Of a DNA stretch of 64,000 nucleotides, positions 2,040 to 29,796 are shown piece after piece; the stretch's first letter is position 1; each line of letters opens with the position of its first letter. Made by a program: the position numbers and the translations under genes. Under the pieces are notes generated by a model. That model did no database searches, was not told the origin of the DNA, and saw only the letters and a list, made by a program, of their open reading frames with translations. The stretch covers positions 1 through 64,000 of IMG/VR virus record IMGVR_UViG_3300011114_000773; one strand, given 5' to 3'. Origin of the DNA: a virus.

Positions 2040-2510
2040 TTACGAAAAATGGGCCTCAATTAAAAACTCTACGAACGCCCTTGTGCTTGGATGTAGCCGC
2101 ATTATGTTCTTATTATTTTCATACCATTCCGCGATTTCCCATCTTCCCGTTATAGATTTTCCAGCACCAGCCCAATCGGCCACCATTTCTCTTATGTATT
2201 CCGTCGGCATTGGTAATGCTTTTATCTCTCCAGAATCGTCTAGGAGAACCCAGTGCTGCCAATGGTGAGGATTGACGTTTTGATGATGAAGCCATGCTTT
2301 ATCAAAATCTTCACGGATAGAGTCTGGAACGCAAGTCTTGTTATACCCACCATAAAAGAGTTCTACGTAAGGACTGAACTCCTTAAATCCAAACTTACTG
2401 AGGTCGTGAATTAGCAGTTGCCAAATAGGAACTCTAGTCTTTATACCAGCGACAAAAACCCAATATTTATGGCGAGCAATATAGCTCAAGTATTTGATAT
2501 ATTTTTTCAT
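2040..2510 (-). CDS. DUF5662-like HD-fold protein
   Basis: HK, HDLSKF, HH..NPHHW, EMVADW motifs. Confidence 0.7.
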   Translation of the reverse strand: MKKYIKYLSYIARHKYWVFVAGIKTRVPIWQLLIHDLSKFGFKEFSPYVELFYGGYNKTCVPDSIREDFDKAWLHHQNVNPHHWQHWVLLDDSGEIKALPMPTEYIREMVADWAGAGKSITGRWEIAEWYENNKNIMRLHPSTRAFVEFLIEAHFS

Positions 2511-2770
2511 TGCTTCTTCTTATATTTTACGCACGTATATAAAAAAATAATGCTTAAAATTGTAAAAACGATATTATTGATTAAAAACATCACGGGCAAT
2601 ACGTCCATCGCCATACAGGAGAGGACTCCGAATACATTGCCAGCGAAAGCAATCCAACATGACGATAAATTTATGTCTTCAACGCTCCTAGTCCTTACCA
2701 TCTGCCGTATCTGTGGAATATTGCTAGCGATAAAGCAAATAGACATTAACGCCGCAAAAATTTCATTCAT
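2507..2770 (-). CDS. PQ-loop / SemiSWEET-like membrane protein
   Basis: 87 aa, three hydrophobic helices, IPQI..RTRSVEDI motif. Confidence 0.7.
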   Translation of the reverse strand: MNEIFAALMSICFIASNIPQIRQMVRTRSVEDINLSSCWIAFAGNVFGVLSCMAMDVLPVMFLINNIVFTILSIIFLYTCVKYKKKQ

Positions 2771-2774
2771 ATTA

Positions 2775-3158
2775 TTAATTCAGGCGCTCAAAGATATTAC
2801 CGATGACCACGAGGGTATCCTTCCCAAGCATTTTAAGATTTCTGGTATATACGCCAAAATCATCTCCGTCTCTATTTGCCGAAATTAAGGAAAATCCGCA
2901 TTCGCTCCAGATGACTTCGTAATCAGCCTGATAGTCTTTTCCCGCATTTATTCTGACGATATCTCCTTCGTAAATATCTACTTTTTTGTCATCTACAAGC
3001 CCGGTAAACTGCTGAATCTCTAAGTCGCAGAACTCCTCAAGTCGATACTGTTTAAGCAAATCAAACGCCGTGCATTCGCCGATGATATGAAAGCCGATGA
3101 ACGTGCTGGGGAATTTCTTATTTTTAGCGTCCCATGCTCTGAATTTAATTGTTCTCAT
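2775..3158 (-). CDS. YopX family protein
   Basis: MRTIKFRAWD...QFTGL.D...IYEGDIV...VIGNIFE. Confidence 0.85.
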   Translation of the reverse strand: MRTIKFRAWDAKNKKFPSTFIGFHIIGECTAFDLLKQYRLEEFCDLEIQQFTGLVDDKKVDIYEGDIVRINAGKDYQADYEVIWSECGFSLISANRDGDDFGVYTRNLKMLGKDTLVVIGNIFERLN

Positions 3159-13008: not shown

Positions 13009-13845
13009 TTATGCCTTAGCTACTCTAGGGTCGCTCAGATTCTCGTCTGCGACTACCCGCCATTTTTTGTGATTTGGGTCGTGATACGCCCTATGTATTG
13101 TACATGGGTCGAGATTTGCCTTATTAGCCAAGTTTTTTAAGCTGTCGCCCTCAAATAGTATTAGGCCCGTCTTCTTCTCTAATAGCCTACATTTTATCCT
13201 ATTGTGTGGGGTCTTCTGGTTTTTGAAATTAAATCCGCGCCTGCTCTCGAATGGCTCAATAGTACTTGGCGGACTGCCGCTAAACTTTCGATACATGAAC
13301 CCGTTTCTGCTCCATTTTTTTCTATGGCATCTATGTATGTCTGTGTCGGGAATACTATTTGCTCTGGATGCCTCCATAACTGACGGATAGGACTCGATTA
13401 GGTTGCCAAGTAAACTATATTTTGCTACTCTGATTTTTCGAGAGCCTCTAACTCTGTTTAAAGTACACTCCTCATTCGGCGTATTTCTTTCTCCTCCCAA
13501 AGTAAGATTGTATCCAAAATTTGAATTACTGCTGTTATACTGTTTTATAAAAAATGACTCCTTCTCATTCAGCTCTTCGGGGCCGGACGCCGTATATATA
13601 ACCTCAAATGAAAAGTTTTCTAGCTTGTCTTTTGAAATTGCAAAATGTAGATAGCTCTTACACGGGTGAGATTCAGATAAGGAGTATTTAATATGCTCGA
13701 CTATTCTCCTTTTAATACGAGAGGTGACTCCTATATAGCATTTTTTGTTGACTAAATTGGTAATTTTATAGACGACTAATTTCGATACGTACTGATTAAA
13801 ATCTTTTCTATTTCTAATTTGGCTGAGATATAACAATGTATTCAC
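13009..13845 (-). CDS. free-standing GIY-YIG homing endonuclease with NUMOD1-like repeat
   Basis: VYKITN...CYIG, GYN.T.GG, Y.S..EA.R; directly downstream of thyX. Confidence 0.85.
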   Translation of the reverse strand: MNTLLYLSQIRNRKDFNQYVSKLVVYKITNLVNKKCYIGVTSRIKRRIVEHIKYSLSESHPCKSYLHFAISKDKLENFSFEVIYTASGPEELNEKESFFIKQYNSSNSNFGYNLTLGGERNTPNEECTLNRVRGSRKIRVAKYSLLGNLIESYPSVMEASRANSIPDTDIHRCHRKKWSRNGFMYRKFSGSPPSTIEPFESRRGFNFKNQKTPHNRIKCRLLEKKTGLILFEGDSLKNLANKANLDPCTIHRAYHDPNHKKWRVVADENLSDPRVAKA

Positions 13846-13867
13846 ATAATAGCATACACCAGATTCG

Positions 13868-14593
13868 CTAGAGTATAGCTAGATTGTTCTCTACCAATTG
13901 GAACTTATATTTATTATAAGCCTCCCAAGTCCAAGGGAACAACTCTTTAACTATTAGTCCAATCGCATTTGAATATTCTTGAATCTCACTCTGCGCATGT
14001 CCATCACTCCTAAGTTGCGTAAAATGCAGTAAATTTTTCAAATCCCAGCAAGTATATATCTCGGTATAGATGTTAACCGGCAAGACCATACGAGCCATTT
14101 CGCGAGCAACGCCGCACTTTAGCAGGTCTTGATAAAACTCATACTGACGCTGACAGTTTAACGAAAAAGCATCAGACAGAGCCTTATTATCTAAATCTTC
14201 CGTCTGGACGCTACTTTGTTTGTTTTTCGCGTCCTGTTTGCGCCATTTTTCCGGTATATAAAATTCATTTGGCAATTCTGTATATCTGGCAGAAACCTCA
14301 TTCAAGTTCTGCATTCTATGTCTTACGTATTGCCTCATAATGAATATGGGCATTTTTATGTTCAGCGTCAACTTGACCATCTCGAACGGAGACGTGTGTC
14401 TGTTCTTCCACAAGTAATTAATAAGTTTTTTATCGGCCTCGTCCCCCTTGCTCGGTGATTTGTAACTAATACGCGCCGCCTCGACGATTCTTCTATCTGA
14501 ACCTAAATGGTCTATATAGCGGACGTACCCGTAGTCTAAACACTTAATTGTGTAACCTTTTTCCATAGCATCTGTTGGTTTTTCTACGTTCAT
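13868..14593 (-). CDS. thyX: FAD-dependent thymidylate synthase
   Basis: AARISY, H.SPFE, RQ.VRHR...NEVSARY, E.ARMVLP, HAQ.EI. Confidence 0.95.
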   Translation of the reverse strand: MNVEKPTDAMEKGYTIKCLDYGYVRYIDHLGSDRRIVEAARISYKSPSKGDEADKKLINYLWKNRHTSPFEMVKLTLNIKMPIFIMRQYVRHRMQNLNEVSARYTELPNEFYIPEKWRKQDAKNKQSSVQTEDLDNKALSDAFSLNCQRQYEFYQDLLKCGVAREMARMVLPVNIYTEIYTCWDLKNLLHFTQLRSDGHAQSEIQEYSNAIGLIVKELFPWTWEAYNKYKFQLVENNLAIL

Positions 14594-14898: not shown

Positions 14899-15329
14899 AA
14901 TTTATTCCCTGTTACTCTTTCATAGTCCTTGCTCATGCAGTGGTGAAATAATGCAGGAAGCCTATCTAGTTGTCTGGCGTATTCCGACTCTCTAGTCAGA
15001 TTTTTGAAAAAGTGAAAAAATACGCCCAAGAGCGAATCATGGAATTCTCTGTTAATTCTTTTAGACTTGTCCGTTGGACGGCCAGCGTCGTCGAACTCCA
15101 AGAAGTGAGAAAGGGAATTCCACTGCCACACAATCTTGACTCCTTCTTCGTTATTGAGTTCTGGAAATAGATAAAATTTCACACCAGCATCAGTGAGTAT
15201 CTTGACGGCGTCCTCAACGGCTTTATGCCTAGCCAAGTCGTCTGCTCCGAGGCTAGATTTAATCTTTTCTCTGGTTATGTCGGCGCTTGTCTGCTCCGCC
15301 TCTAGGTGTTCTTGATTAACGGGATTCAT
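14895..15329 (-). CDS. hypothetical protein
   Basis: 144-aa ORF. Confidence 0.55.
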   Translation of the reverse strand: MNPVNQEHLEAEQTSADITREKIKSSLGADDLARHKAVEDAVKILTDAGVKFYLFPELNNEEGVKIVWQWNSLSHFLEFDDAGRPTDKSKRINREFHDSLLGVFFHFFKNLTRESEYARQLDRLPALFHHCMSKDYERVTGNKL

Positions 15330-15338
15330 TATTAAAGC

Positions 15339-15556
15339 GTTTGGGTCCGACCTATATCATACCTCGTACTAAGCGCGAGTCCACGTTTTACTGGTTGCTA
15401 GTTACTTATTACGAGCTACAAGTCCACAGATTTCATCTTGGCGCTTGCTGTATGGGGTTTTGAAAGCCCACTGGAGACGCATTTGCAAGCCGATATCAGT
15501 GTTCTCAGCCATAAGTATCGCACCGTTCCTCAGTACAACACACGCCGGACCCAAAC
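15339..15556 (-). ncRNA. putative structured RNA (~220 nt) with long closing stem and internal 7-nt repeats
   Basis: Arms 15544-15556 and 15339-15351 pair (GUUUGGGUCCGGC/GUCGGACCCAAAC) and extend ~10 bp through G-U pairs that work only on the minus strand; heptads at 15387-15421. Confidence 0.6.
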
Positions 15557-15559
15557 AAA

Positions 15560-16009
15560 TCACTCAGCGAAATCTACGTCGGTTTTCGCATTGAAGTCGT
15601 CAATCTTATCTTGCAGTTCGGCGACTTCTCCTCGGCAAATAGATTGAATCTTGTCCAAGTCTTCTCTGCCTACATGGGCGTACCATATATAGGTCTTCGT
15701 CACCTCTCGACCGAGAGGTACGAGTTCAGTTCCGCTCCTCGTAGGGAGGGTATTGAAAAAGTTGGATGAGTCCTTTGCTTCAGCAAGTTGCACAAGCAGT
15801 CCTGAAATAGGTGCCGTCGCCAAAGCGATTGCTGTTTTTAGCCTGACGAGCTTGGTGCTTTCCGCAGCCAGTGTCGAAAGAATCTGTCCCATATTGACAG
15901 TAGATGTTGAGTCATCTCTGCGGCTATTTTCGCGCCTAGCGACTTCTCGCAGGGCGTTGATACTTCCGACTAGGCGGTTTTTGACTTTTAGAGCTTTGTG
16001 AATTTTCAT
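15560..16009 (-). CDS. DIP1984/DUF6847-like long coiled-coil protein
   Basis: MKI.KALK.KNRL...I..L...EN...LKTAI..A...LAEAK...LPT...LQD.ID.FNA.T pattern. Confidence 0.7.
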   Translation of the reverse strand: MKIHKALKVKNRLVGSINALREVARRENSRRDDSTSTVNMGQILSTLAAESTKLVRLKTAIALATAPISGLLVQLAEAKDSSNFFNTLPTRSGTELVPLGREVTKTYIWYAHVGREDLDKIQSICRGEVAELQDKIDDFNAKTDVDFAE

Positions 16010-16015
16010 ATAAGG

Positions 16016-16044
16016 ATATTACTGTTATTTACAGAACTTGTCAA
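16016..16044 (-). promoter_or_regulatory. leaderless sigma70-type promoter TTGACA-N17-TAATAT-N6-ATG
   Basis: -35 at 16039-16044, -10 at 16016-16021. Confidence 0.8.
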
Positions 16045-16277
16045 GAGAGTAGCCGGTATTTCTTAGTCCCATCTTCGTAAATATCTACCGCTATATCTAA
16101 CTCATCAGCTAGCTGAACTACCCAATGAGCTTTACGATGGTCGTCTGATATTTTGTCATCTTCTCTGACGGACTCCCTGCCTGTAAATGCTTTATTTATA
16201 GCGCCAAACGCATGAAACCTCTGGCGCTCGCTCAGGCTTACAGAAACGACTTTATTGAAAGTAGCTACTAGCTTCAT
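16041..16277 (-). CDS. hypothetical protein
   Basis: 78-aa ORF. Confidence 0.5.
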   Translation of the reverse strand: MKLVATFNKVVSVSLSERQRFHAFGAINKAFTGRESVREDDKISDDHRKAHWVVQLADELDIAVDIYEDGTKKYRLLS

Positions 16278-16282
16278 AAGAA

Positions 16283-17905
16283 CTAGACTTCAAGACTCTT
16301 ATTGATTCGCCCCCTAATTTCCGCAAGAGTATGGTCGATAATTAACTTGCCATCAAGAAAAACTGTCTTAAGTTCACCCTTCTCCTCCTCTTCTGGAGTT
16401 ACGCAGTCCTCGTAAGTATAATGCCCATCCACTAAGTCCACCCGGATAAGCCCCTTGGCAGACTTTTTCATGCCATCATCAGAAACGGGGTCTTTATATA
16501 CCTCGATAGCCAAGTCGTTCACAACGCCATACGTAGCCTTGATGGCCATACCGAAGGTATCCCTAGTATTATATTGGTAAGTGAAACTGCCAATTCCATA
16601 GATGCTGTTCGTGGAAGCGAAACCCTTCTCTTTCAGCCGAATACAAATTTTCTCGCCACGGGCCTTAGTAATCGAATCTCCATAAATCGCGCCGATATGA
16701 TAGTCAAGGACTTTATATCCCTTGGGACTGACGGTTCCACCGAAGATGTTCCACAGCGATTCAATTAGTCCCTTACGGACGACTTCCTTCTCCAAGGCTG
16801 TAAGCTTCTCCATCTGAGGGTGATATCCGCTGAAACCGCACAGGCAGTCAACTGGGTCCGTCCAAAACGAGTCGGGACGAATAACAAGCCTATCTACCGG
16901 AAACCCTCCGGTGCGAGCAAGAATCTCTGGCTTAAGCCGAGGAAGAATCTCAACGACGACAGAAAACAAATTATATGTGTCACCGACATACGACGCGACG
17001 CCATTCGGTACGCATTCAGTGATGTACCATTTAAGAAAAGCGTACTCCTTAACAAGGCGCGGATTAACGGACTCGGAAGTCGGCTTCTCCATACCGAGAG
17101 GAGTTCTCTCGATAAATTCTGCAAGAATTGCTTCGTAGTCCATGCACCCGTAGATGATGTTGAACGACGCTACAGCGTGCTCCGTCGCCGAGACGCTCGC
17201 TCCGACTAGTTCCTTATCAACGTCGGCATTATAGTAATGCTCAAGCCACTCAATCGCCGGAATAGTGTCCGTGCCCGAAAAAGAGAGCAAGTGACCGCCA
17301 CCGCTCGAACAGGCGGTTTCAAGGCTTCCCATTCCACGGAAACTAAAATCGTGCCCTTGCCATTGGCAGAACGACGTATCACCGACTGTTTCCATCGCGT
17401 ATTTGTTAAGCATCTTACGAAAATCCAATGCAATTGTAGCGCTGGTAATTGGTTGCCAAGTGACGCAACTCCAAAGGCTTTCCAGATAATTCACCAGCCA
17501 ATACGCATGGTCAATAGTGTTTGTAATTGTCGTGACAGGCGTACGAATTAATGCGCTAACCCCTTCTGGTAAAGCCTTGATTTTAAGGGGCAAATACCCA
17601 AGGTCGTGCAGTTTTTTAATATGCTCGGTATCGACCGCTCCTTTACCCAAGGTAGCATTTACCATTCGGAGATATTTCTTTTCAACCTCGGCCCAAGGCT
17701 TGCTAAAAAAGTTCTTTCCCCACTGTACGAGAAGATACTCTTTAATAAAATATTGGAGGCCGAACACGACAACAGTATTCAACCCTTCTACGCGGCTCTT
17801 CCGAGCCGTCAGGTTGGAATAGACTTTCTGAGTGCCCTTGGGATAGCACTTGTAGTGAGTCTGCTTGTAGAAGTCTGTTAAAGTCAATGGTTGGATGCTA
17901 TTCAT
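16283..17905 (-). CDS. nadV: nicotinamide phosphoribosyltransferase-like (Namat of NARP1)
   Basis: TDFYK, HDFSFRG, GTDT, ATEH, DTY, IRPDS, YGDSIT, GIGSFTYQY.TRDT, KKSAKG. Confidence 0.9.
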   Translation of the reverse strand: MNSIQPLTLTDFYKQTHYKCYPKGTQKVYSNLTARKSRVEGLNTVVVFGLQYFIKEYLLVQWGKNFFSKPWAEVEKKYLRMVNATLGKGAVDTEHIKKLHDLGYLPLKIKALPEGVSALIRTPVTTITNTIDHAYWLVNYLESLWSCVTWQPITSATIALDFRKMLNKYAMETVGDTSFCQWQGHDFSFRGMGSLETACSSGGGHLLSFSGTDTIPAIEWLEHYYNADVDKELVGASVSATEHAVASFNIIYGCMDYEAILAEFIERTPLGMEKPTSESVNPRLVKEYAFLKWYITECVPNGVASYVGDTYNLFSVVVEILPRLKPEILARTGGFPVDRLVIRPDSFWTDPVDCLCGFSGYHPQMEKLTALEKEVVRKGLIESLWNIFGGTVSPKGYKVLDYHIGAIYGDSITKARGEKICIRLKEKGFASTNSIYGIGSFTYQYNTRDTFGMAIKATYGVVNDLAIEVYKDPVSDDGMKKSAKGLIRVDLVDGHYTYEDCVTPEEEEKGELKTVFLDGKLIIDHTLAEIRGRINKSLEV

Positions 17906-17946
17906 TGGAAGTAGTTTATCTGAAAGTTGGGGCCAAGTCAAGGCGT

Positions 17947-18381
17947 TTATAGCCTTTCGGAGTCTTTCCACATGGTTTTTCTATTAATCTTAACTATTAA
18001 ATTTTCCAATATTTCTAGTGCTTGATACAAACCCGCTCTGTCGTCTAGCAAGAGATTAAAGAAAATCTTGCCGTTCTTTCCAAATGGCGTGTCGATTACG
18101 TTTTCGTTAATTCCGTTAATCTCGATGTCCATCTCAGACTTAAAATAATCACGAATGAACCCATAACGACTAGTCGGAGACGCAGTAAAACAAACTATAA
18201 AAAAATCTAATCTTTTGCATTCAGACATGATGAATTTGATTCGACTATACCCCGTGTCTGGATAATTATGATAATTGAAGACGGTATCGTCAAAACCCAC
18301 AGCGACAATTAGCCTTGGATGTTTTTTATATTCAGCGTAAAGTCTATCTACGCATCTGTCAGTACGTTCAAATGGATTCAT
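17947..18381 (-). CDS. HAD-like protein (motif I Asp replaced by Gly)
   Basis: IVAVGFDDT, FTA, INEN, K, LLDDRAG. Confidence 0.65.
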   Translation of the reverse strand: MNPFERTDRCVDRLYAEYKKHPRLIVAVGFDDTVFNYHNYPDTGYSRIKFIMSECKRLDFFIVCFTASPTSRYGFIRDYFKSEMDIEINGINENVIDTPFGKNGKIFFNLLLDDRAGLYQALEILENLIVKINRKTMWKDSERL

Positions 18382-18382
18382 A

Positions 18383-18835
18383 TTATGCCTGTCGTTCGAG
18401 GAGGAATACAAGCCCTCGCGCATACTTCAAGATTTGCTTTTGAGTGGGCGAATCACTAAGATTGTGAAGCATATCCGCGATTTTAACTCTTCTGGCTATT
18501 TCGTTTTCGCGAACGCCTTCGAGGTACGCCTCGTAAGAGCAGTCTCCTGTTTTCGTGAGCAGTGCTACCGCATCTACTACCGGATTAGGCACTCCGAAAT
18601 GGAGTAGCGCGGCCTGCGTTACATCAGTATCTTCTAGCACGTCATGCAACCAACCAGCAGCCCTTACGAAATCGACTTCTGCCGCCAACTTTTTCACGAC
18701 GGCTTCTGGATGAGTAATGTAGGGAGTTACTCTATCGCGCCGGAATTGATTAGCGTGAGCCTTTCTTGCTATATGTTCTGCCAGCGCGACAATCCCACCA
18801 GCCACGGCTGTACTGGTTAGCTTCTCTTCACTCAT
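18383..18835 (-). CDS. HD-domain small alarmone hydrolase (Mesh1/SpoT-HD-like)
   Basis: H..Q.R...PYITHP, LHDVLEDT, VK.AD..HN. Confidence 0.85.
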   Translation of the reverse strand: MSEEKLTSTAVAGGIVALAEHIARKAHANQFRRDRVTPYITHPEAVVKKLAAEVDFVRAAGWLHDVLEDTDVTQAALLHFGVPNPVVDAVALLTKTGDCSYEAYLEGVRENEIARRVKIADMLHNLSDSPTQKQILKYARGLVFLLERQA

Positions 18836-18837
18836 AA

Positions 18838-19092
18838 TTAATATATCCTATCCACTTCAAAACATTCCTCAAATGCCTCTGCGTCACCCAAATGAAAATC
18901 CGCGAATAATAGAACCACAAAGTCACTAGTGTCTATGTGACAAGAGTGAGTATATGACCCGACCTTCATGCCTATCCTATCGTCCTTAACCACGCGATAG
19001 AACTCAGCGTCATTAGGAACCATGATACCTCGCGAAGAAAGCTCAAGTCTGACCCGAGTAGCTGCCGCTTGATTTTTAGTAAGACGCTTCAT
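18838..19092 (-). CDS. hypothetical protein
   Basis: ORF in operon. Confidence 0.45.
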   Translation of the reverse strand: MKRLTKNQAAATRVRLELSSRGIMVPNDAEFYRVVKDDRIGMKVGSYTHSCHIDTSDFVVLLFADFHLGDAEAFEECFEVDRIY

Positions 19093-19948
19093 GTATGTTA
19101 AATTTATCGCCATATTTGCGACGATTTTCGATTATGTATTCTCGCGACATAAGACTATCAGTGGTCCAAATATAATCTATGCCATTATCATATAAATGCT
19201 GAATCCCACGAGAAAAAATGCCATGAGTAACATATAAATGAATGACAGATGCGCCCTTTGCTCGTAGGACTTTCGCTAATTCAATGAATGTGGCACCACC
19301 GTCGCATATATCGTCAACGATACATACTTGCCGACCGAGAATCGGTTCGTCTTCGTGGACCTCGGTCTTGATTATTTTTCCGGTAGATAAATCTCGGACC
19401 TTCTCGCAGCGAACAAAGCTATTATATTTAACACTGGCAGCGAGTTTCGCGACCTTCTTACTCGCTCCGTCGTCTGGACTGACAAGAAGCGGTTTATCAT
19501 CGACATAAAGGAATAGCCTTTGGAGATTATAGAAGCAATGAATTATTTTCTCTTGGGAAATAACTTTTACGTTATTAATGAGGGCCGGTGCGACATTGCT
19601 ATGCGGGTCCATGACCTCTACCTCGTCAAAGCTAAGAAAGTTTAAGTAATCGCAAAAGACCTTCAAACTAAAAGCTTCGCCTTCATCGCACACCCTATCC
19701 TGCCTAGCGTATGGTATATATGAGAGTTTTAAATAAGATTGCTTTTGGCCGAATTGCCTTTTTGCCGCGTCTTTAACCATCGCTAATTCGATTAAGTCAT
19801 GCGCCGATTTTGCTTTTAGCGTAAAAGTCAAGCAGTTTATAGGGCCATACTCCGACTTGTCGAATTTAATTCCGACTTCTCCTCCGGGGAAGACGAATGA
19901 TTTAAACCGACATACTTTATCGAAGTGTGTAACTGTGATATTGCTCAT
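19076..19948 (-). CDS. prs: ribose-phosphate pyrophosphokinase-like (Adps of NARP1)
   Basis: FPGGE, YIPYARQDR, DPHS, SPD.GA, K.R, IVDDICDGGATF, THGIFS. Confidence 0.9.
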   Translation of the reverse strand: MSNITVTHFDKVCRFKSFVFPGGEVGIKFDKSEYGPINCLTFTLKAKSAHDLIELAMVKDAAKRQFGQKQSYLKLSYIPYARQDRVCDEGEAFSLKVFCDYLNFLSFDEVEVMDPHSNVAPALINNVKVISQEKIIHCFYNLQRLFLYVDDKPLLVSPDDGASKKVAKLAASVKYNSFVRCEKVRDLSTGKIIKTEVHEDEPILGRQVCIVDDICDGGATFIELAKVLRAKGASVIHLYVTHGIFSRGIQHLYDNGIDYIWTTDSLMSREYIIENRRKYGDKFNIHEASY

Positions 19949-19980
19949 GCAAAAGACTCTATACGCTCTTTTCCAGTAAG

Positions 19981-20385
19981 TCAAGACGATAGTTTCGCCT
20001 CGCGCATTAGATGAGGATGCTCATGGATATTTCCGACCACTTCGATATCCCACACTCCTGATATCCTAGGCCTCTCGAAACGGTGCCCACCAAGCGCAGG
20101 ATAAAAACTATATCGAAAGCAGGCGTCTTCAGGGTCATAATAAACAATTGCCTTATAATAAAATCCTATCTTATCGCTCCAGCTATCGAAACTCTTGACG
20201 GATAAGATGTCCCTTTCGCAAATCTCGTTTCCGTTTTTGTCCAATCGACCAGTGTATTGAGAGTAAACATAATTGTCTTCATCGAGACAAATAGATACAA
20301 TGCGAACACCGCTTGGGCTAATGAATAATGGAGCAGACCATGCTTTCGTGGATAAATTCCAAACTCTAAATTTTAACTCGCGCAT
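19981..20385 (-). CDS. YopX family protein
   Basis: MRELKFRVW...QYTG..DKNG.EI.E.DI...VVGNIHE. Confidence 0.85.
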   Translation of the reverse strand: MRELKFRVWNLSTKAWSAPLFISPSGVRIVSICLDEDNYVYSQYTGRLDKNGNEICERDILSVKSFDSWSDKIGFYYKAIVYYDPEDACFRYSFYPALGGHRFERPRISGVWDIEVVGNIHEHPHLMREAKLSS

Positions 20386-29410: not shown

Positions 29411-29796
29411 TGGTGGACGCGGCGAGGAGTCGCACCTCGCGTCAAAAAAATACTTTCCATAGGTCACTACACGCTTAGTTTATTTTTAATTACTTCAGTC
29501 CAAGTGACTCTTGATAAACAAACATCATTTGAACTATAGATTACTTTTCAGTCGGCCCTCTAATCACTGAGGCTGACCAATTCTGAATTTACGCTTATGG
29601 AATCTACAGACATCAATCCCTAAGCGGCTTGGCCATTAGACCAAGGCGGTTGCACGGCTGCTCACTACGCAGAAACTATTCCGTGTGTTTTTTGCTGTTT
29701 TAGCACTTACTTTTTTTCCGATTATTTAAGAGGCCATCGGAGTCCTCTGCGTGCGACTGAATAGTTCGTATTTTAGTTCGATACTACTACGCGCCC
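29411..29796 (-). ncRNA. ssrA: tmRNA
   Basis: 5' GGGCGCG pairs with CGCGUCC-ACCA 3' (G3:U70); T-arm GCGAGG-UGCGACU-CCUCGC; tag ORF 29636-29704 AKTAKNTRNSFCVVSSRATALV*; promoter TTGACA-N17-TAAACT (29812-29840). Confidence 0.92.

Follow-up and report, generated by a model that had tools for sequence, protein, structure and literature searches.

The hut leader RNA of Bacillus subtilis is recognized by the hexameric protein HutP through XAG triplets alternating with 4-nt spacers, i.e. with a 7-nt period (PMC2425495). HutP, as well as TRAP bound to the trp leader, is an oligomeric protein that reads short motifs at fixed spacing on single-stranded RNA, and represents the closest analogy for the phage-borne gene–RNA module analysed in this study. 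The likeness is mechanistic only, since the protein of the module (P0001) has an unrelated fold and no HutP match in Pfam. Furthermore, the HutP sites are placed in a 5' leader and serve the control of termination, whereas the module carries a rail of 7–9 repeat units within a closed RNA of ~220 nt, encoded 3' of the gene of its own protein.

A protein gene linked to its cognate structured non-coding RNA is also known from Ro60 (Rsr) and the bacterial Y RNAs, which occur in phages as well as near tRNA-like modules. However, the protein of the module is not a Ro60/TROVE protein, Y RNAs have no counterpart of the rail, and no Y RNA match of the element was found in Rfam. Type III toxin–antitoxin systems (ToxIN, CptIN, TenpIN) likewise contain a protein gene beside a tandem-repeat RNA, but their repeats of ~34–45 nt are located upstream of the toxin gene, whereas those of the module are 7 nt long and located downstream. 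Moreover, the type III toxin is an endoribonuclease, whereas P0001 has a helical bundle fold devoid of any such toxin fold. Finally, the sponge RNAs CsrB/RsmZ and CrcZ also expose many copies of a short single-stranded motif on a structured scaffold. Their motifs (GGA, AANAANAA) are not strictly periodic and bind global regulators encoded elsewhere, in contrast to the exact 7-nt spacing and the adjacent partner gene of the module.

On the protein side, the closest described group is the DIP1984/DUF6847 family (PF20935; NF038048; structure 3KDQ of Corynebacterium diphtheriae), whose members of ~150 aa comprise three helices and a beta hairpin, the same as P0001. The family has no assigned function and its members are often annotated as 'septicolysin'. 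No mention of DIP1984 or DUF6847 was found in the literature searched, and we know of no RNA-binding activity ascribed to this family.

The window, i.e. the whole stretch of DNA subjected to analysis, corresponds to positions 1–64,000 of an IMG/VR phage record of 108 kb, whose completeness was estimated at ~60%. All genes around the module are encoded on the minus strand. The following features were distinguished:

13009–13845, minus strand: GIY-YIG homing endonuclease gene
13868–14593, minus strand: ThyX thymidylate synthase gene
15330–15338, minus strand: U/A-rich tail following the closing helix (GCUUUAAUA), aligned with the U-rich tail in which the family model ends
15339–15556, minus strand: structured RNA element, 218 nt between the ends of its closing helix, P1
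15339–15363, minus strand: 3' arm of P1, identified by comparison with locus L041
15378–15430, minus strand: heptad rail of seven units (GUGG, GUAG, GUAA, GUAA, GCAA, GUAA, GUGG) at 7-nt spacing
15452–15471, minus strand: predicted apical hairpin (GGGC..CCCC) capping the predicted rod, from the fold prediction; invariant in L041
15532–15556, minus strand: 5' arm of P1 (13-bp core, 1-nt bulge, 10-bp G-U-rich extension), identified by comparison with L041
15560–16009, minus strand: gene of P0001 (149 aa, DIP1984/DUF6847 fold), from the ORF call, the fold match to 3KDQ and homologs matching NF038048 and PF20935
16016–16044, minus strand: sigma-70-type promoter TTGACA-17-TAATAT, 10 of 12 consensus matches
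16283–17971, minus strand: nicotinamide phosphoribosyltransferase gene (562 aa)
19076–19984, minus strand: ribose-phosphate pyrophosphokinase gene
29411–29796, minus strand: tmRNA gene (Rfam RF00023, 103.6 bits)

Upstream of the module lies a nucleotide/NAD cluster (16283–19984, minus strand), similar to phage NAD+ salvage modules, which encodes nicotinamide phosphoribosyltransferase, a phosphoheptose-isomerase-like ORF, an HD phosphohydrolase and ribose-phosphate pyrophosphokinase. In the related locus L041 (positions 2501–3000), a homolog of the 158-aa ORF of the window (17947–18423) is placed directly upstream of the DIP1984-like gene. Therefore, the nicotinamide phosphoribosyltransferase gene, together with a 78-aa ORF (compared region 16041–17971), was either gained by insertion in the window phage or lost by deletion from L041. 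The gene following the RNA element begins with an ATG at 15329 (minus strand) and encodes 144 aa. Further downstream, the GIY-YIG endonuclease gene directly follows thyX (13009–14593, minus strand), an arrangement typical for homing endonucleases. ARAGORN called no tRNA in the 64-kb window, and the tmRNA gene at 29411–29796 was likewise uncalled by this program. Comparison of four sequencing DNA runs over the region yielded only identical contigs, with zero variants.

The promoter at 16016–16044, which the original prediction had described as leaderless, is indeed present and constitutes the best promoter-like site of the region. The end of its −10 box is separated by 6 nt from the ATG (16009), and no Shine-Dalgarno sequence precedes the gene. 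The mRNA of the 149-aa gene is thus predicted, from its sequence, to be leaderless. The same arrangement recurs in homologous loci: a promoter with the −10 box 4–12 nt (mostly 6) before the start codon was detected in 16 of 31 of them, compared with 10.7% of 206 background ORFs, and thus a leaderless transcript spanning gene and RNA is a trait of the family. No additional promoter from which the RNA could be transcribed on its own was detected in the region. One promoter-like site inside the 3' part of the RNA (TGGACT-16-TATGAT, 15356–15383, minus strand, 9 of 12 matches) was rejected, as its −10 box is lost in L041 and the match is probably due to chance; such a site could serve the downstream 144-aa gene.

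P0001 itself gave no direct family match in Pfam, NCBIfam, PHROGs or PADLOC, and neither PF20935 nor NF038048 was matched even at E≤10. Its AlphaFold model (pLDDT 91) contains three helices and one beta hairpin; the earlier description of an all-helical protein is therefore not strictly correct. When the model was compared with PDB structures using Foldseek, the top match was chain A of 3KDQ over the full length (TM 0.69/0.67, probability 1.00), at an E-value of only 0.04. The relatives of P0001 form 802 clusters at 50% identity, and the closest of them include P0002 (94% identity), P0004 (77%), P0005 and P0006. Among the relatives identified with phmmer (at E-values of ~1e-11 to 1e-12), full-length matches to NF038048 (DIP1984_fam) were obtained with E-values of 6e-13 to 8e-7, and two of these relatives exceed the gathering score of PF20935 (30.4 and 30.6 vs 27). 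The homolog encoded in L045 also matches NF038048 (E 1.8e-7), and the nearest Atlas clusters are viral and partly assigned to DUF6847. Other searches were negative: PF20935 was not among the top families of any of 28 close homologs of P0001, a sequence search of PDB with the family profile returned nothing relevant, and phage T5 gave no match to NF038048 or to the family protein alignment at E≤1. The DIP1984/DUF6847 assignment of the original prediction was right at the level of the fold or superfamily, by way of the 3KDQ match and the intermediate homologs; HMM searches with these homologs matched both NF038048 and PF20935, whereas those with P0001 did not. P0001 belongs to a mainly viral branch of DIP1984/DUF6847.

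In a model built with four copies of P0001 the self-binding score reached 0.72, compared with 0.00 for the best of three controls. Contact agreement between the runs was at least 93%, the pLDDT of the partner was at least 85, and the confident interface was that of a symmetric pair. Twenty of 30 proteins whose structures are pairs of one chain attained the mark used for self-binding, as did 1 of 23 whose structures are single chains; these counts are only a rough calibration for P0001, which was modelled with a custom alignment and in four copies. The modelling supports self-association of P0001, probably as at least a dimer, and the result may in part reflect memory of the multi-chain 3KDQ crystal.

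The RNA element begins 3 nt past the stop codon of the P0001 gene with the predicted 13-bp closing stem (15556–15544 paired with 15351–15339, including one G-U pair). The ~10-bp extension of this stem proved equally sound: it consists of 10 bp, five of which are G-U/U-G pairs possible only on the minus strand. Counted as a whole, P1 comprises ~24 bp, of which 23 pairs were compared with L041. An alternative helix that had also been suggested (UUGUACUGAG with CUUAGUACGA) was rejected, because two of its eight pairs are lost in L041, while the stem extension is kept there by compensatory changes. The five in-register heptads noticed at the outset (15387–15421) fall inside the seven-unit rail, and the AGTCCAC repeats flanking them, read on the minus strand as GTGGACT boxes (15427–15421 and 15384–15378), are its first and last units. 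Two looser ..AA units are present just upstream of the rail (15431–15444, minus strand). Autocorrelation of the element was strongest at lag 7 (0.51), a value above those of 100 out of 100 shuffles.

Folding of the minus-strand RNA gave −79.4 kcal/mol (z = −3.6; none of 200 shuffles was as good), compared with z = −1.7 for the plus strand. The first three units of the rail are paired with a 5' segment when the RNA adopts its minimum-energy fold; their unpaired probability is 0.36, versus 0.75 for the second half of the rail. The apical hairpin at 15452–15471 is likewise a feature of the predicted structure. The element is present in a single copy in the 108-kb record. It matched no family of Rfam 15 (including RAGATH-27, 6S, SRP, Y RNA and tmRNA) at E≤10, and a search with RF03100 (RAGATH-27) at this site was also negative.

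The only close relative used for the analysis of covariation in the clade of the window was L041, whose protein is 83% identical to P0001. Between these two loci, identity amounts to 92.9% in the interior of the element, but only 79.1% in the gene and 57.7% at its third codon positions; two downstream genes show 73–77% nucleotide identity. The arms of P1 are only ~70% identical, yet none of the 23 pairs is broken: three are changed on both sides and seven on one side via G-U intermediates, so that they are still paired. Substitutions in the rail spare the GUAA or UUAA cores and fall on the positions flanking them; the interior rod shows few substitutions relative to this single relative. Covarying stems combined with conserved unpaired or functional sequence are a signature of selected RNA. 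The element of the window is a real, strand-specific, structured RNA under strong purifying selection, obligately linked to its gene, and the covarying arms, the one-strand G-U pairs and the z-score of the sense-strand fold agree with its original interpretation as RNA rather than a DNA palindrome.

A profile scan of viral contigs revealed 38 loci encoding homologs with protein identities of 26–48%. An ORF-free stretch of at least 139 nt (mostly ~200) comes after the homolog in 33 of 37 viral loci, and in the remaining four spurious short ORFs overlap the element. The predicted folds of these viral elements share a closing stem, which begins a few nucleotides past the stop codon, and a rail composed of A-rich YUYAAAA units. 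Evaluated without alignment, 13 of 34 elements had a closing stem whose length exceeded that of every one of 30 dinucleotide shuffles, and lag 7 was the best autocorrelation lag in 26 of 34. In all, the homologous gene of 34 loci besides the window is followed by such an element of ~200 nt, ORF-free and provided with a closing stem and a 7-nt-periodic A-rich rail, and the 7-nt periodicity is family-wide.

Covariance models were built in three rounds, with R3 as the final one. Searches with R3 gave 23 matches at E≤0.051, all of them full-length, on the sense strand and directly after the gene, with none comparable elsewhere in 264 kb. With the filters switched off, three more matches were obtained, bringing the total to 26 loci, including the huge-phage GenBank records LR756500.1 and LR756511.1. 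The consensus of the model ends in a U-rich tail following P1. In an alignment of 19 sequences, 89.5% of cells were paired, compared with 48.9% after shuffling and at most 45% after sliding, and 30 of 30 pairs change on both sides; since this alignment was fitted to the model, the counts lean towards structure. The family helices contain 26 G-U cells versus 11 A-C cells, a bias in favour of the sense strand. When alignment A9 was searched for additional conserved helices or pseudoknots, P1 alone was detected, and we do not claim a pseudoknot. Rfam gave no match at the elements of 28 related loci, and fragments of the element may be present in a catalogue of candidate viral structured RNAs (PMC10690425).

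In the window itself, R3 had its top match with the whole model at 15328–15559 (minus strand), with a score as low as 12.5 bits (E = 0.19 for 3 kb searched), and it left the element of L041 unmatched. Direct comparison of the window element with the 38 loci using blastn and nhmmer also revealed no significant similarity. An exact-pattern scan of viral contigs for the conserved interior was negative, as were a single-protein scan of the same collection and a search of plasmids in which a DUF6847-positive homolog served as the tblastn query. Because of the low R3 score, we infer the affiliation of the window element with the wider heptad-rail RNA family from its synteny, size, P1, tail and in-register rail. 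It has the architecture shared by the family, i.e. (i) a position on the same strand, 3' of the homologous gene, (ii) a length of ~175–235 nt, (iii) a closing helix, (iv) a 7-nt rail in the 3' half and (v) a U-rich tail, and when aligned with 22 other elements by MAFFT, its rail falls into register with their A-rich rails.

Four canonical DIP1984 genes (176–196 bits) were identified in 301 genomes of Planctomycetota. The two readable canonical genes, as well as one weaker match, are followed by a closed element in which GCAA or GUUA units recur periodically, and a clear U-run is present at the element end in two of the three planctomycetal loci examined. In the genome G182, a canonical DIP1984 gene (locus L057) is followed by ~1.4 kb containing no ORF of at least 90 aa, in which GUUAC/GUUAU units occur at 6–7 nt spacing within the first 260 nt after the gene. 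Rail motifs vary with the protein clade: the window has GUAA, most phages have YUYAAAA, and Planctomycetota have GCAA or GUUA. This variation fits co-evolution of each RNA with its own protein.

No neighbour genes conserved across the loci were found. Same-strand tRNA genes are present within 3 kb in 13 of 34 loci, sometimes abutting the element, and a tmRNA gene is located nearby in two further loci. In several phages (L040, L016, L015, L022) the module lies inside an island of RNA genes: the order in L040 (1216–3370) is gene, heptad RNA, four tRNAs and tmRNA, while L015 and L022 contain 8 and 13 tRNAs within 3 kb, respectively.

Several other explanations of these observations were considered. 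The element might be a cis-acting 3' UTR of the mRNA (a large terminator or stabilizer, or an autoregulatory site) and not half of a stable particle. Its location 3 nt past the stop codon in the same transcription unit, the U-rich tail after P1 (a clear U-run in the bacterial loci) and the lack of any detected RNA promoter speak for such a role, which we nevertheless regard as rather unlikely: a terminator or stabilizer needs neither ~200 nt, nor a 7-nt rail, nor an interior conserved at 93% in the face of 42% synonymous divergence, and the architecture persists at protein identities down to ~26% and in the canonical bacterial family. Autoregulation by binding would, in turn, still involve a protein–RNA pair. 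It is less likely still that the RNA is a stand-alone decoy or sponge for an RNA-binding factor of the host, in the manner of CsrB or CrcZ, with the neighbouring protein being only a helper or functionally separate. The element is phage-borne, and its short, mostly single-stranded repeats with an A-rich, G-poor motif are typical of sponge RNAs; on the other hand, the clade-specific rail motifs fit co-evolution with the module's own protein better than recognition by one conserved host factor, and the R3 searches never found the RNA without the gene.

The original prediction had favoured either a type III toxin–antitoxin-like pair, in which the RNA neutralizes a toxic protein, or a defence or anti-defence role. 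A protein gene beside a repeat-containing RNA in a mobile genome does resemble the former, but P0001 matches none of ToxN, AbiQ, CptN and TenpN in Pfam, PHROGs or PADLOC and has no nuclease or ToxN-like fold, and its 7-nt repeats lie downstream of the gene instead of forming units of 34–45 nt upstream, behind a terminator. The toxin–antitoxin idea is accordingly very improbable. Nor was the proposed defence function borne out: PADLOC returned no real match for P0001, merely weak coiled-coil noise to LmuB, and no conserved defence partner is encoded nearby. Readings of the region as a DNA element or as a small coding sequence are both unlikely. Inverted terminal arms combined with short tandem units might indicate iterons, an origin, a partition site or a MITE acting at the DNA level, a possibility to which we assign a very low probability, as the element is single-copy in the 108-kb record, its arms covary rather than keep their sequence, the G-U pairs are valid on one strand only, and its orientation to the gene is fixed in every locus. 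The idea that the gap encodes a small protein, i.e. the 36-aa ATG ORF at 15402–15512 on the minus strand (53 aa if started from GTG), carries next to no weight. No stop codon interrupts this frame in the window or in L041, and three of the four substitutions between them are synonymous. However, third positions differ by only ~8%, compared with 42% in the neighbouring gene, and therefore the constraint acts on the nucleotides themselves; in addition, no Shine-Dalgarno sequence is present, ATG ORFs of at least 20 aa are missing from 16 of 34 elements, and no peptide similarity extends beyond the window–L041 pair. With synonymous sites too conserved and no counterpart at other loci, this ORF was judged to be non-coding.

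We return to the reading of the gene and the RNA as one autonomous module, in which the protein likely binds the rail unit by unit to form a ribonucleoprotein; on balance, we consider this reading somewhat more probable than not. Transcription would start at or next to the ATG and yield a single transcript containing the DIP1984-fold ORF followed by the non-coding RNA of ~220 nt. The ends of this RNA would pair in the long helix P1, succeeded by the U/A-rich tail, while its 3' half would display short units exactly 7 nt apart. The RNA might be released from the mRNA, e.g. by an RNase III cut in P1, and the protein, probably at least dimeric, would occupy the units of the rail. By analogy with HutP, the rail is probably the binding platform of an oligomeric protein. 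Binding of P0001 at one heptad per subunit, as initially put forward, is plausible in view of the strict gene–RNA linkage, the shared transcription unit and the predicted homo-oligomer. As the module is often located among phage tRNA and tmRNA genes, its cellular role may involve stable-RNA or translation biology.

Dozens of distant phages and some bacteria carry the gene–RNA pair, which corresponds to no catalogued RNA family and is thus probably an undescribed protein–RNA particle. A broader and more tentative proposal is that DIP1984/DUF6847 as a whole could be the protein half of a widespread, so far undescribed ribonucleoprotein of phages and bacteria, whose oligomer would read a 7-nt rail on its own 3'-encoded, helix-closed RNA, with motifs co-evolved clade by clade and a role in stable-RNA or translation biology during infection. 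If this were true, it would provide the first functional handle on a large family (the 802 clusters mentioned above) whose structure has been solved but not explained, and 'septicolysin' would be a mislabel for DIP1984/DUF6847 proteins. It would also define an uncatalogued class of RNA carried by large phages beside their tRNA and tmRNA genes. The compact cassette of ~700 nt (promoter, leaderless ORF and RNA), with its exact 7-nt period, might bring to light a new type of periodic RNA recognition.
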